A stretch of 51,739 nucleotides of DNA from Escherichia phage vB_EcoS_G29-2. Of this stretch, positions 4,455 through 50,651 are shown piece by piece. The notes under the pieces are model-generated. The model had not been told where the DNA came from. It saw only the letters and a program-made list of their open reading frames with translations, and did not search any database. Location of the stretch: sequence record NC_049822.1; one strand, written 5' to 3'. How positions within the stretch are numbered: position 1 is the first letter of the stretch; each line of letters begins with the position of its first letter. The translations under genes and the position numbers were made by a program.

Positions 4455-4640
4455 ATGATATATGCACTTGTATTTTTGGTGATTTTCTTTTATATTTCAG
4501 GACTATTCATCTTCCGAGCATTGGTTAAAGAGTGTGATTGCACGGATAAAGATCAGCCTCTTGTTCTGATGTTCTGGTTTGTGTGGTTTTGGGTGGCGCT
4601 TTACCAGATTGTACGGGATGAAAGCGGCTTTAAGTGGTGA
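4455..4640 (+). CDS. small membrane protein (2 predicted TM segments)
   Basis: RBS GAGGAGAA; hydrophobic stretches IYALVFLVIFFYISGLFIF and LVLMFWFVWFWVALY. Confidence 0.5.
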   Translation: MIYALVFLVIFFYISGLFIFRALVKECDCTDKDQPLVLMFWFVWFWVALYQIVRDESGFKW

Positions 4641-4695: not shown

Positions 4696-4833
4696 ATGAA
4701 GATGCGAAACTTCGAAAAAATCGTAACCAAAAAGAAGCGCTACAGCTATGACGAGCACCGCGAGATGAATCAACGCTATCGCAAGAAGCCACAGCGCCCA
4801 GGTAAACATTCAAGCAGACATGGAGAAAACTAA
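4696..4833 (+). CDS. small basic protein (45 aa)
   Basis: not in ORF track (<60 aa); RBS AGGAG 6 nt upstream; fills gap before kinase gene. Confidence 0.3.
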   Translation: MKMRNFEKIVTKKKRYSYDEHREMNQRYRKKPQRPGKHSSRHGEN

Positions 4834-7711: not shown

Positions 7712-7840
7712 ATGGATAACTACATAAAACCGTCGCAGCGGTGCGCACAGAAGCAAGAGGAAGCATTAGAACGCGGCGATACTGAAACGGCAATGCACTA
7801 TTTCGAAATGTACAACTTGTGGAAGGGTAGAGGTCTGTAA
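7712..7840 (+). CDS. small hypothetical protein (42 aa)
   Basis: not in track; RBS AAGGTGA; follows terminator 7651-7698; TAATG overlap with next gene. Confidence 0.35.
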   Translation: MDNYIKPSQRCAQKQEEALERGDTETAMHYFEMYNLWKGRGL

Positions 7841-42138: not shown

Positions 42139-42318
42139 ATGGTTGTTTACGATCCACGCGCTTTTAAAATTGCTCAAGAAGTTTCACGCGAATCTGTTGC
42201 TGGCGGTTCGGTTAACGGCTATCAGTTTGATTGGTCGGCAGCAATGACCTTGCTTAAGGTTGCATATGGTCACGCGCCAATTGAAACAGCGGAGGCATAT
42301 TATAAGCATGAAGGTTGA
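42139..42318 (+). CDS. small hypothetical protein (59 aa)
   Basis: not in track; RBS AAGAGGAAAA downstream of motif promoter. Confidence 0.4.
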   Translation: MVVYDPRAFKIAQEVSRESVAGGSVNGYQFDWSAAMTLLKVAYGHAPIETAEAYYKHEG

Positions 42319-42550: not shown

Positions 42551-42648
42551 GGATTATTATCATGTGGCGTTTGTTACTTTTGCCCTTACCTGTTATGATG
42601 GCGATCTCTATTGTATATGTTGTCATAATGAGATAAGGAGAATTTTTG

Positions 42649-43910: not shown

Positions 43911-44126
43911 ATGAAAGATTTTTTAAACGCTGCAACTTCCGGCACTGGCGGAGCGTCAATCACTGGCGCGGTAACTGGTCAAACAACTATTGCAATAGCC
44001 AGCTTCGTTTTGATGGCTGCATTTGGTATGTGGGGCGCTTATCTTCGCTGGCGTGATAGTAAGGCGCTACGTGACGCGCTTGAATGCGGTGATATTAAGA
44101 AAGCTATTGAGATCAGAGGTAAATAA
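43911..44126 (+). CDS. holin
   Basis: 71 aa, single [22 protein letters not shown], charged C-terminus, directly upstream of endolysin. Confidence 0.7.
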
Positions 44127-44614
44127 TGAGTATAAAACAAAGAGTGACCGCTGCGGCTTTTGGCGTTGCTCTTGCCCTTACTTCTCCGCTACTGGAGGAA
44201 ATAGAAGGAGTAAAACATAAGCCGTACAAAGATATTGCTGGGGTATGGACGGTTTGCGCCGGAATAACTGGCCCTGACGTAATACAAGGCAAAACGTACA
44301 CACAAAGAGAGTGCGATGCACTACTGGCGAAGCATATCAAGATCGCAAAGGATGAAGTTGATAAGCGTGTAAAGGTTGACATTCCTGATACAATGCGCGC
44401 AGCAATGTATTCATTCACATACAATGCTGGAACTGGAGCTTTTAGAAATTCAACCATGCTTAAGCTGATTAATAACGGTCGTTATATGGAAGCGTGCGAT
44501 CAGTTATGGATATGGACAAAATACACCAATCCAAAAACAGGAAAGAAAGAAACGTCTAAAGGACTGCGCAACCGCCGCGCGGTGGAATTTAAATATTGCA
44601 TTAAGGATCTGTAA
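44126..44614 (+). CDS. SAR endolysin (lysozyme, E-8-D-5-T catalytic triad)
   Basis: weakly hydrophobic N-terminal signal-anchor [15 protein letters not shown] followed by E-x8-D-x5-T. Confidence 0.75.
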
Positions 44615-44616
44615 TT

Positions 44617-45015
44617 ATGCGAAAGTTATCAATAATCGCTATCGCTGTTATTTTGTCTGGATGTTCAAGCGTTACGCCACTGACCGGATTAATCGGTAGT
44701 AAGCCGGAAATCACAGCACAGGCAGGAGCGGAGAACGTAAAGCAGACCGTTGGCGTTACCGCAAAGCAGGACACCAGCACAAAACAGGAAACTACAATAA
44801 AGGAATCTGCGGTTGATAAGGTGGACACTTCCAGCAAGAAGGATTTCACTACGTCAACCATTCAGGCCAATACCATCAAGGCTGATAAAATCCAGGTTGT
44901 GCAGGGTGAGCAAAGGAAGTGGTACGATCCCATAATCTATTGCGCTGCAATTTTTAGCGGTCTTTTGTCAATGCTTTACTTTTCCTACCGCAAAGGCAAC
45001 AAAAAGGAGGCTTAA
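44617..45015 (+). CDS. unimolecular spanin (lipoprotein with C-terminal TM)
   Basis: lipobox LSG-C plus C-terminal TM IIYCAAIFSGLLSMLYF; arrangement as in T1 gp11. Confidence 0.7.
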   Translation: MRKLSIIAIAVILSGCSSVTPLTGLIGSKPEITAQAGAENVKQTVGVTAKQDTSTKQETTIKESAVDKVDTSSKKDFTTSTIQANTIKADKIQVVQGEQRKWYDPIIYCAAIFSGLLSMLYFSYRKGNKKEA

Positions 45016-48128: not shown

Positions 48129-48173
48129 ATTATGCCAGGCTTTTACACCTGGCTTTTAACAAAAAGTGCTATT
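48129..48173 (-). promoter_or_regulatory. conserved motif promoter (hairpin GCCAGG/CCTGGC, -10 CATAAT)
   Basis: minus-strand motif; same hairpin sequence as copy at 1254. Confidence 0.55.
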
Positions 48174-48879
48174 TTGCGTTTGCTTCAAAGACGGCGCGAG
48201 CAAAACCGCGCGGTGTGAGGGAGCGGATCATCTTTGTGCGAGACGATTTTCCGCCAGTTTTGGCCCAACCAGGATTATCCTTGTCGCCATCTTTAGGAAT
48301 GATTGTTGCGCGCGGAGGAATAACAAATCCGTTTCCAGTCCAAAGGCATGTTTTCTTAAAGTACCGATCCCGTGCCGGAATAATATCAGGAAAGTCGGGA
48401 TGTTTATCATCTTCCGGCAGATAGCCAGCATAATCGCACGGATGGAACGTATAATCAGGCTTGCGCCATAGCGTTGACAGCTTGCCTACAGGATTCTCTA
48501 TCATGTACGGAACACCGAAATAATCAGCAATTTGCGCCGCTATTTTGCAAGTGTCGGCGGCTTCATCCTGGAACGATGGATTCTCAATGCGTTTTTTAGC
48601 CCAATGGCGAGATCCGCTATTTGCAAGGTCAGTGCATGGAGGGAACGCCATAATAAAATCAGGCTTACCCCAATTTTCAAGTTTTGCGGTATATTTGAAT
48701 AGATCATCAATCCACGCGTTAACGTAAAAGATATTGTCATGGATTATGCGCACTGAGTGGTAATCACCGTGATCAGCATCATCGTAATTAAAGCAAATGC
48801 ATTTATATCCAGCATCAGCCCAATCTTTAACGGCTTTACCGGATCCATCAAACAAAGAGAAAATTAAACCCTTATACAT
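48169..48879 (-). CDS. putative DNA (cytosine-5) methyltransferase, compact
   Basis: motif I-like LFDGSG, motif IV-like FPPC, motif VI-like ENPVG; RBS GAGGTGA. Confidence 0.5.
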   Translation of the reverse strand: MYKGLIFSLFDGSGKAVKDWADAGYKCICFNYDDADHGDYHSVRIIHDNIFYVNAWIDDLFKYTAKLENWGKPDFIMAFPPCTDLANSGSRHWAKKRIENPSFQDEAADTCKIAAQIADYFGVPYMIENPVGKLSTLWRKPDYTFHPCDYAGYLPEDDKHPDFPDIIPARDRYFKKTCLWTGNGFVIPPRATIIPKDGDKDNPGWAKTGGKSSRTKMIRSLTPRGFARAVFEANAK

Positions 48880-48888
48880 TTCATCACC

Positions 48889-49113
48889 TCAAAACGGAAA
48901 GCATCGCGGACAGTTAGGATCAAAATTGCAGCCGCAATCATTAACAATCATCGTTGGATCTGCAAATGCAGCACCGCATTCATGTTCCATATCCATTTCA
49001 CCCAACGCATCATCAAGTGTCCTGATCTTATATGCAACTTCAAGAGCAGCCTCTTTATTCAGCCCAGCATCTTCCGCTTTTTGCAGTCGCTCAAAAAATC
49101 CGTCCTGGCTCAT
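48889..49113 (-). CDS. hypothetical protein with C-terminal Cys cluster
   Basis: CGCNFDPNCPRC at C-terminus. Confidence 0.5.
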   Translation of the reverse strand: MSQDGFFERLQKAEDAGLNKEAALEVAYKIRTLDDALGEMDMEHECGAAFADPTMIVNDCGCNFDPNCPRCFPF

Positions 49114-49223
49114 TTCATAAGCTCCTTGATAACAATCAGAATAGTAGCAATAACAGCAGTGACAACTAAAAGACCAGCAAGGCTCATCATCACACCAAAT
49201 AAAATATCAAGAAATTTCGTCAT
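49110..49223 (-). CDS. small hydrophobic peptide (37 aa)
   Basis: not in track; RBS AGGTGA; single TM MTKFLDILFGVMMSLAGLLVVTAVIATILIVI. Confidence 0.3.
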   Translation of the reverse strand: MTKFLDILFGVMMSLAGLLVVTAVIATILIVIKELMK

Positions 49224-49240
49224 TATTATCACCTTTATTT

Positions 49241-49265
49241 AAAGGGAGGCGAAACCTCCCGTTTA
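49241..49265 (-). terminator. rho-independent terminator
   Basis: minus-strand GGGAGG-TTTCGC-CTCCC + TTTAAAT. Confidence 0.55.
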
Positions 49266-49269
49266 TTAA

Positions 49270-49497
49270 TTAGATAGCCTTCCAACTTTCAATGAACATG
49301 CTGTTCTCTTCAAGAAGTTTAATCAATTCTTCGCGCGTATATTTGCGGATTTTACTACCTGGATGCGAGCCAACAACAAACACACCTTTACCGCTCGTGA
49401 TTGTTAACTGGTTGATTCCGCAAGATTTATCCATCTTAATGGCGACGCGGTGATGTGCATCAACAGTGTGCATGATGTTAGTGATTTTGGCTTTCAT
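49270..49497 (-). CDS. hypothetical protein
   Basis: 75 aa, terminator hairpin after stop. Confidence 0.5.
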   Translation of the reverse strand: MKAKITNIMHTVDAHHRVAIKMDKSCGINQLTITSGKGVFVVGSHPGSKIRKYTREELIKLLEENSMFIESWKAI

Positions 49498-49671
49498 TAT
49501 GCAATCCTCATTATATTTGGTGTGGTAACTATATCAGGTTTGAGAAATATTGTTTAGCAATTTGTGCTATCAGTTGAAATAGCTATGGCGATTTGCTCGC
49601 TTTCCGTCTCCGCCATAATGATCATTAGAAACGGGAATCATCCAGGAATTATGAAATATTATTAGTCTCAT

Positions 49672-50223: not shown

Positions 50224-50509
50224 CAACAACAGATCCAGTTAAAGAGATAAGTGCCCTTGTGATCTTGTGTCTGCGATACTGACGCGCAACAACCGGAAGA
50301 TTTTCACCGCTTTGATGACCGAAGCAGATCGGCAACTCACCCTCAAGAGAGCGGAAGCCGCCAAACTCAAGATCACGCACAGGCTTTGAGCGCCACGCTT
50401 CAATAAATCCGCGTTCGTCACGCGTGATATAGCGGTATATGTTCGGGAGGGGCAATTGTATCCCCTCAAAATCCACTGTATCGGTATAGCTGTAAAACTT
50501 AGAACTCAT
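50219..50509 (-). CDS. hypothetical protein
   Basis: RBS GGAG; stop in motif copy. Confidence 0.5.
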   Translation of the reverse strand: MSSKFYSYTDTVDFEGIQLPLPNIYRYITRDERGFIEAWRSKPVRDLEFGGFRSLEGELPICFGHQSGENLPVVARQYRRHKITRALISLTGSVVE

Positions 50510-50651
50510 AGTCAACAACTCCAAATTCGTTAACAATTTGCGCCTTATAGAATCCGCCATTTTTCGCCAGGTTATAACATGCCGCTACAGTTTCAAATTC
50601 GCGCACTTCCGGCTGGCTGTTTTCGTGTTCCCAGGTAATCAGAGTAACCAT
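50499..50651 (-). CDS. small hypothetical protein (50 aa)
   Basis: not in track; RBS GAGGA and conserved leader after motif promoter 50685-50729. Confidence 0.4.
   Translation of the reverse strand: MVTLITWEHENSQPEVREFETVAACYNLAKNGGFYKAQIVNEFGVVDYEF

Follow-up and report, generated by a model that had tools for sequence, protein, structure and literature searches.

Genomic Context of the Locus

The subject of the present analysis is a short open reading frame (ORF) for a peptide of 37 amino acids (aa), located on the minus strand at positions 49110-49223 of the 51,739-nucleotide (nt) sequence of Escherichia phage vB_EcoS_G29-2 (NC_049822.1), which is referred to below, at its full length, as the window. 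Over the 2.7 kilobases (kb) surrounding this ORF the window shares 99.7% identity with Escherichia phage herni and 99.5% with phage egaa, both assigned to Hanrivervirus (Drexlerviridae, Tempevirinae), and thus represents the genome of a virulent T1-like coliphage; identity to PGN590, JakobBernoulli (Bas07), pSf-1, and aaroes is 92-95% over the same segment. The ORF sits in a block of small minus-strand genes, which also includes genes for a Dcm-like methyltransferase and a helicase, and belongs to a leftward unit with the order promoter-like site, 75-aa gene, hairpin, 37-aa ORF, 74-aa gene, and Dcm-like methyltransferase (Table 1). The 75-aa gene, the 74-aa gene, and the methyltransferase constitute the conserved core of this arrangement, and the small ORF is a variable insert in it. 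A preliminary description, made from the letters of the window alone, had placed here a 37-aa peptide with a single transmembrane segment and a ribosome-binding site, wedged between the frames 49270-49497 and 48889-49113, and the sequence, its hydrophobicity, and the Shine-Dalgarno motif all agree with this.

The Shine-Dalgarno motif of the ORF, AGGTGAT, agrees with the complement of the 16S rRNA 3′ end, and a motif of this kind is present at the equivalent position in all peptide types described below. Only 5 nt separate it from a hairpin (-13.2 kcal/mol, z = -2.1) scored as terminator-like on the plus strand. The stems of this hairpin in relatives differ yet pair (GGCGGC/GCCGCC and GGGCGC/GCGCCC), and the element is probably a weak terminator or attenuator, or an RNA-stability element. 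At the opposite end, the stop of the ORF overlaps the start of the 74-aa gene, and the Shine-Dalgarno motif of the latter is embedded in the last codons of the former, so that ribosomes ending the peptide are placed to start the 74-aa gene. The overlap is kept in nearly all loci, over 4 nt, or over 1 nt in one of the types (type B).

Evidence for a Coding Function

A lone ORF of 37 codons in an AT-rich spacer is not significant in itself and becomes significant because it is conserved. With the 74-aa gene used as an anchor, about 100 syntenic loci were taken from IMG/VR and metagenomes. The 75-aa and 74-aa genes are spaced in a bimodal manner, being 1-82 nt apart in the loci without a small ORF and 154-181 nt apart in those with one, and two outliers of 206 and 267 nt contain a small ORF as well. 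The ORF is intact in approximately 32 of the 35 unique insert-bearing loci, most indels are in frame, and not a single ORF-killing substitution is found over at least 128 inferred ones (P = 0.004 if neutral). The ratio of nonsynonymous to synonymous substitution rates (dN/dS) was estimated, in small samples, as 0.42 for type A (the type of the window), 0.33 for type A′, and 0.25 for type B, the proposed frame being the lowest each time. Variable columns are distributed over the three codon positions as 24/18/42, demonstrating a third-position bias (chi-square p = 0.004), and none of the 30 types of replacement observed in the core of the peptide introduces a polar or charged residue, proline, or a stop, vs. 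25% expected from random single-base changes (p = 1.8e-4). When types A, A′, and C are aligned, G17 is invariant and K3, D6, A23, I28, and K33 are nearly invariant. Taken together, dN/dS, replacement bias, ORF retention, and in-frame length variants make a chance ORF unlikely, and on these comparative grounds we judge 49110-49223(-) to be a real coding gene. The idea of a genuine small gene missed by length cut-offs, put forward in the preliminary description, is therefore supported from several sides: by ORF retention, in-frame indels, the conserved Shine-Dalgarno motif and overlap, hydrophobic-only replacements, and the positions G17, K3, D6, and K33. Conservation in relatives, named there as one of the checks, and its lack as part of the refutation, was indeed found.

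The in-frame length variants comprise peptides of 33 (12-nt deletion), 36, 41, and 45 aa, as well as a 73-aa form. Those of 41 and 45 aa carry two and three tandem copies of a 12-nt unit, AAGGAGTTTATG, which corresponds to the Shine-Dalgarno motif of the 74-aa gene and at the same time to the peptide codons K-E-F-M; its repeats are found in L066, P0014, P0018, P0029, and P0030, where the tail becomes KEFMKEFMK or KEFMKEFMKEFMK. The 73-aa form comes from L068 (ERZ1034973 NODE-2837; P0037), where 40 extra codons are placed in frame behind the shared Shine-Dalgarno motif, approximately 1-267 nt upstream of the 74-aa gene, and the product contains two hydrophobic segments, MKHESDIPILIFLIAVILVCCGLALIFCLPLTSSMYCGAR and then a 33-aa type A peptide.

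The Peptide as a Predicted Membrane Helix

The peptide MTKFLDILFGVMMSLAGLLVVTAVIATILIVIKELMK is composed of a 26-residue uncharged core and short polar flanks, M-x-K-x-x-D at the N-terminus and K-E-x-M-K at the C-terminus, the latter tail being 5 residues long, with an invariant glycine in the middle of the helix. For its best 19-residue window the Hessa scale gives -2.9 kcal/mol and that of Kyte and Doolittle 2.78. AlphaFold2 supplied with 28 family members returned one continuous helix over residues 2-36, with a predicted local distance difference test score (pLDDT) of 95.9. In the 37-aa peptide a predicted hydrophobic helix, free of charges and no shorter than 19 residues, has thus been kept in evolution, and the comparison of sequences indicates a product kept by selection as an uncharged helix, long enough for a membrane span.

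Peptide Types and Their Distribution

The slot between the hairpin and the 74-aa gene is occupied by type A (37 aa, MTKFLDILFGVMMSLAGLLVVTAVIATILIVIKELMK) in Hanrivervirus, by type A′ (38 aa, MIDKAIDFFFYSIVGAVGFLVTAAGLAIILAVIKGIMR) in MikeNSara-like phages, by type C (36 aa, MNKITDIALSVVVFMLGVTLAASCVALIYIMFKVMI) in phages EC167 and vB_Eco_mar001J1, and by type B (40 aa, MMNSVEKLIKILIAVFIFLDCLLIGGMAFLLFDEIWRSLL) in Klebsiella phages P-K7R and RCIP0096. Types A, A′, and C are mutually alignable and come from phages of E. coli, Shigella, and Salmonella; type B belongs to Klebsiella phages. Comparison of types A and B by hhalign gave a probability of 2%, and therefore no homology between them can be claimed. 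The type B single-helix ORF, usually with Asp in the middle of the helix, was observed in the identical slot of L019-L025, L082-L096, and GenBank entries OM317910 and OR532890.

Homologues were searched for with an alignment headed by a 40-aa GTG-start version as the query. The profile search over 5.8 billion proteins revealed 37 clusters (90% identity) of A/A′, all of them on T1-like contigs of approximately 50 kb, and an exhaustive search with HMMER among 1.84 billion representatives brought up no protein from outside the A/A′ family. None of the four peptide types gave a match in profile searches of PHROGs, Pfam, NCBIfam, and PADLOC. Since neither these collections nor the 1.84 billion representatives contain a homologue of known function, the function of the peptide has to be inferred. 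When 5,426 complete E. coli genomes were searched with the ORF by blastn, no match was obtained, and there is therefore no evidence of host origin. A scan of the region with Rfam gave a sub-threshold chance match only. The literature on small membrane proteins of Drexlerviridae, gene functions of Bas07, and phage ribosome profiling offered nothing specific to the 37-aa gene, and neither ribosome-profiling nor proteomic data for Hanrivervirus were found there. As judged from its occurrence, the 37-aa gene appears to be an accessory one, lineage-restricted to Hanrivervirus-type T1-like phages, that is, to one clade of Drexlerviridae.

The gene had been presented as unannotated, and this is true for the RefSeq record of herni; in JakobBernoulli (bas07_0056), pSf-1 (pSf1_0023), BEK12B, and MikeNSara, however, it is listed as "hypothetical protein", and full-length copies are annotated in 9 of the 26 GenBank records containing one (by reading of the feature column). 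In practical terms this means a gene omitted in RefSeq herni and many sister genomes and called by other annotators. The 37-aa ORF is neither new to databases nor strongly constrained, representing a minor annotation gap and not a discovery. About half of the proteins of the T1 family are without known function, mostly those from small ORFs (PMC13164509). The scientific value of this ORF is modest and consists in a compact, readily mutated 111-nt candidate for studying what small phage membrane peptides do, with natural controls at hand: relatives devoid of the ORF, an analogue without homology that fills this slot elsewhere, and length variants that stay in frame. Should it turn out to be an exclusion factor, an anti-defence factor, or a de novo gene, the interest would be broader.

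Neighbouring Genes and Other Small ORFs

The features of the locus and the other small ORFs considered are collected in Table 1. An element of the TGnTAT..T kind, similar to the one ahead of the 75-aa gene, is present at the matching position in T1-like loci, and the methyltransferase comes after the 74-aa gene in almost all loci. The 74-aa protein has a net charge of -9, its C-terminal cysteine motif is invariant, and it is conserved across Drexlerviridae. The search in PDB found no relative of this protein, and its AlphaFold model, with pLDDT of only 63.6, is too poor to use, so that the 74-aa protein offers no functional clue. Across its 94 homologue clusters there is no functional name except for one "putative cytosine DNA methylase", which we read as a mislabel from the adjoining gene. 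The region after the 74-aa gene is a hotspot for very small inserts. In the T1-like loci L045, L054, and L060 a micro-ORF of 25 aa, MTPIEKICCPKHGGSGNKTTCPFCK, which is rich in Cys and has a good Shine-Dalgarno motif, follows the 74-aa gene directly, falling between it and the methyltransferase, and in L069 this position is taken by an ORF with an HNH-like motif (DHVNH), assigned by motif reading only.

Table 1. Coordinates of the features of the locus and of the other small ORFs in the window
Feature	Position	Strand	Remarks
Promoter-like TAAACA-17-TATAGT with upstream TG (extended -10), before the 75-aa gene	49528..49556	-	Consensus match only
75-aa protein, phrog_4344, first gene of the transcription unit	49270..49497	-	
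G+C-rich hairpin GGGAGG-uuucg-CCUCCC with AAA/UUU flanks	49240..49265	-	Directly after the 75-aa gene
Shine-Dalgarno motif AGGTGAT of the 37-aa ORF	49228..49234	-	4 nt before ATG
37-aa ORF, type A, MTKFLDILFGVMMSLAGLLVVTAVIATILIVIKELMK	49110..49223	-	ATG start; sequence reading
Shine-Dalgarno motif AAGGAG of the 74-aa gene	49122..49127	-	Inside codons K33-E34 of the 37-aa ORF
ATGA stop/start overlap of the 37-aa ORF with the 74-aa gene (translational coupling)	49110..49113	-	Sequence reading
74-aa acidic protein with C-terminal CxC...CxxC, phrog_9323	48889..49113	-	
Dcm-like DNA methyltransferase, next gene of the unit	48169..48879	-	Annotated in herni and JakobBernoulli
Non-hydrophobic ORF of 45 aa, strongly basic (net charge +10)	4696..4833	+	phrog_8176, E = 1.8e-5
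42-aa hydrophilic ORF	7712..7840	+	phrog_1312, E = 2.9e-19
59-aa ORF, not hydrophobic	42139..42318	+	phrog_2180; herni gp10, bas07_0043
50-aa ORF, not hydrophobic	50499..50651	-	phrog_4653, E = 8.9e-32; herni gp27, bas07_0062

Four other ORFs had been grouped with the 37-aa one as similar small hydrophobic peptides lacking annotation. All of them are present in the window and conserved, each with an AG-rich Shine-Dalgarno-like motif upstream, but they are not similar hydrophobic peptides: their best 19-residue windows range from +11 to +28 kcal/mol, and they are hydrophilic or basic products assigned to PHROG families. The heading of small hydrophobic peptide genes therefore fits the 37-aa ORF only. 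As for annotation, 4696-4833 and 7712-7840 are missing from RefSeq herni, as is the 37-aa ORF, but 42139-42318 (gp10) and 50499-50651 (gp27) are there. The ORF 4696-4833 occurs in 134 phage records, and its 38-aa version is annotated in JakobBernoulli. The product of 7712-7840 is spread widely among phages: tblastn gave matches in 614 phage records, among them many of Autographiviridae (Klebsiella KP32-like phages, LIMElight, and Pectobacterium phages), where the matches are often situated beside or under genes annotated as nucleotide kinase.

Several further small ORFs came into view in the window. A hydrophobic micro-ORF of 24 aa, MWRLLLLPLPVMMAISIVYVVIMR, lies at 42562-42636(+) between the homologues of herni gp11 and gp12 (exonuclease); it is preceded by the Shine-Dalgarno motif GAGGA, its stop abuts the Shine-Dalgarno motif of the next gene, and it is neither annotated in herni and Bas07 nor assigned to a PHROG or NCBIfam family. 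Hydrophobic ORFs of 21-29 aa with the motif ..LP.PV..A....Y..VM occupy this slot across many genera of Drexlerviridae, including T1-like loci, which also contain more distant versions. In 16 unique "MWRL/MLRL" copies W2, R3, L4, P8, P10, V11, A14, Y19, and M23 are invariant except for W2L (L119) and P8Q (L111), Pro8 being encoded by all four synonymous codons; an ORF of this type is absent from a group of 53-57-kb contigs with an exonuclease 65-68% identical. In terms of wide conservation, 42562-42636 is a better example of a small hydrophobic ORF than 49110-49223. A 33-aa ORF at 49570-49671(-), which is not hydrophobic, matches phrog_32259 (E = 4.6e-16) and is annotated in JakobBernoulli (bas07_0058) and absent from the annotation of herni. 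The 61-aa protein 4455-4640(+), annotated in herni (gp41) and Bas07 and belonging to phrog_9755, has two hydrophobic segments (MIYALVFLVIFFYISGLFIF... and ...LVLMFWFVWFWVALYQIV) and represents one more small membrane protein encoded in the early region.

Weighing of the Possible Explanations

We consider it rather probable that the 37-aa ORF is a genuine lineage-restricted accessory gene for a single-helix peptide, presumably residing in the inner membrane and having a host- or competitor-specific role. Catalytic activity is out of question, as the peptide is far too small, and a specific role of this kind seems the most plausible since the evolution of the gene is fast, most of the family can dispense with it, and in other lineages its slot is taken by different single-helix ORFs. 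The peptide would insert into the host inner membrane early in infection and act there by helix-helix contact with a membrane protein of the host or of the phage, for which the invariant mid-helix glycine is the likely packing site, and it might serve, for example, in superinfection exclusion or in modulation of an envelope function, outside the core lytic programme. A number of observations weigh against this explanation. Constraint on the 37-aa gene is weak and its evolution much faster than that of the neighbouring genes: the ratio of nonsynonymous to synonymous polymorphism (pN/pS) of the window variant relative to its relatives amounts to 0.5-1.1, vs. 0.01-0.23 for the 75-aa, 74-aa, and methyltransferase genes. 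The copy of the window is devoid of two otherwise conserved glycines (G14S and G24V), and 3 of approximately 35 loci are disrupted, by frameshifts in L091 and L098 (metagenomic) and by stop loss in L025, which may be assembly errors or real losses. Conservation of K33-E34 need not reflect the peptide, because the same codons make up the downstream Shine-Dalgarno motif. The gene is missing from most Drexlerviridae, and the charges of the flanks (K3/D6 at the N-terminal side; K33/E34/K37 at the C-terminal one) are balanced, giving no clear topology.

The ORF might instead be translated into a peptide with little or no function, a scenario which we consider unlikely, though the likeliest of the alternatives. 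It has two versions. The ORF may be a young proto-gene, which arose by insertion behind the ancestral initiation region of the 74-aa gene and is tolerated as its T-rich sequence gives a harmless hydrophobic helix, or else its translation merely feeds the coupled gene, delivering ribosomes to it past the upstream hairpin. The value of pN/pS close to 1 on the lineage of the window and the evolution far faster than that of the neighbours are consistent with near neutrality, along with the ATGA overlap and the downstream Shine-Dalgarno motif inside the ORF, the confinement of the family to one small clade, the occasional disrupted copies, and the plasticity of the junction with its 12-nt tandem duplications. 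Moreover, in the ORF-less locus L008 the Shine-Dalgarno motif and spacer ahead of the 74-aa gene, cataaaggagataataATG, hardly differ from those of the small ORF, aaataaaggtgataataATG, which suggests that the ORF was inserted behind an ancestral start site. Yet dN/dS stays at 0.25-0.42 family-wide, with its minimum in the proposed frame, the core shows no polar replacements, and conservation extends to K3, D6, and G17, which lie far from the downstream Shine-Dalgarno motif. The 74-aa gene, in turn, has a good Shine-Dalgarno motif of its own, and in most relatives it is expressed with no ORF ahead of it; the unrelated type B found in the slot is also a single hydrophobic helix. A membrane-damaging effector, type I-toxin-like or holin/antiholin-like, which depolarises or permeabilises the membrane for host shut-off or lysis timing, appears improbable. 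The size and hydrophobicity of the peptide do resemble those of small membrane toxins, e.g., TimP (PMC7667032), and its operon is of an early type, but the core is uniformly hydrophobic, uncharged, and not amphipathic. In place of the charged hydrophilic C-terminal domain of holins there is only the polar tail of 5 residues, and the lysis cassette (holin, endolysin, and spanin, by homology to herni gp13-15) occupies 43911-45015(+), approximately 4 kb away. No plus-strand promoter-like site is present at 49100-49260, where the weak TTGATA-N17-AATAAC is not conserved in relatives. The particular case of a type I toxin with antisense RNA was rejected because of the lack of a conserved opposite-strand promoter and of an Rfam match.

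The least credible option, for which we see hardly any room, is that 49110-49223 is a non-coding spacer or 5′ leader of the 74-aa gene, or that the actual feature belongs to the plus strand, being either an 86-aa shadow ORF (48982-49242) or an antisense RNA ending at the hairpin. ORFs of 37 codons are not rare in AT-rich DNA, the antisense frame is open in all copies, and the hairpin scores as a plus-strand terminator; all this is compatible with such an option, against which stand the retention of the ORF, improbable under neutral substitution, the third-position bias with hydrophobic-only replacements, conservation of the Shine-Dalgarno motif, start, and stop/start overlap, and the failure to find a plus-strand promoter or an Rfam match. 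An open antisense frame is an expected by-product of an NTN-rich coding sequence, and we regard the one found here as the usual shadow of such a frame. The 86-aa shadow ORF was discarded by direct reading of the sequence: it has no Shine-Dalgarno motif and starts inside the antisense of the 74-aa gene.

Beyond the case of a single accessory gene, one might speculate that the junction of the hairpin and the 74-aa gene is a hotspot for single-helix membrane micro-proteins, which T1-like phages would gain or invent time and again as fast-evolving, host-specific effectors of an arms race. If so, these peptides may, for instance, block the genome entry of competing phages or neutralise a membrane-acting host defence, and type A may have arisen de novo, via an insertion just behind the ancestral start site of the 74-aa gene. 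We find this generalisation doubtful and put it forward tentatively.

Comparison With Known Systems

For an accessory membrane peptide with a host- or competitor-specific role, the closest functional analogy appears to be gp15 of HK97, described as a protein of small size which enters the inner membrane and prevents genome injection (PMC3594210). The likeness would lie in the nature of a small inner-membrane exclusion protein, and it does not extend to the sequence: there is no relationship between gp15 and the 37-aa ORF, for which Pfam, PHROGs, and NCBIfam gave no gp15/YebO match. In addition, the gp15 gene is expressed from a prophage, where it forms a transcription unit of its own, whereas the 37-aa ORF belongs to a virulent phage and is coupled to the next gene. 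It also leaves no space for a promoter of its own and lacks a terminator, the two features by which a moron is recognised, no promoter-like site being present between the hairpin and the start codon.

AcrZ, MgrB, MgtS, KdpF, and CydX exemplify small membrane-protein regulators of bacteria. This class comprises proteins of up to 50 aa (bioRxiv 10.1101/511675). The peptide resembles them in having a single transmembrane helix, roughly 30-50 residues long, which has very short polar ends and contains small residues that are conserved, and by analogy it would likely act through binding a larger membrane protein. It differs from them in being encoded by a phage, with neither homology to these regulators nor a match in E. 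coli chromosomal DNA.

Hok, TisB, Ibs, and Ldr are type I toxin peptides. TimP is a small toxic membrane protein (PMC7667032). Similar size and predicted membrane targeting are common to them and the 37-aa peptide, whose helix, however, is not amphipathic and whose gene is embedded in an operon with a coupled gene, with no antisense RNA gene or promoter evident. Large surveys of small genes in phage genomes exist. Small genes are also gathered in the GMSC catalogue (PMC11364881). The 37-aa gene shares with the unannotated small genes of phages, a common category among small phage and microbial ORFs, the length below 50 codons, the omission by length cut-offs, and a predicted transmembrane product, and is distinguished by the restriction of the A/A′ family to one clade of Drexlerviridae. 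In this respect it is an uncharacterised addition to the small membrane peptides of phages, already recorded in sister genomes.

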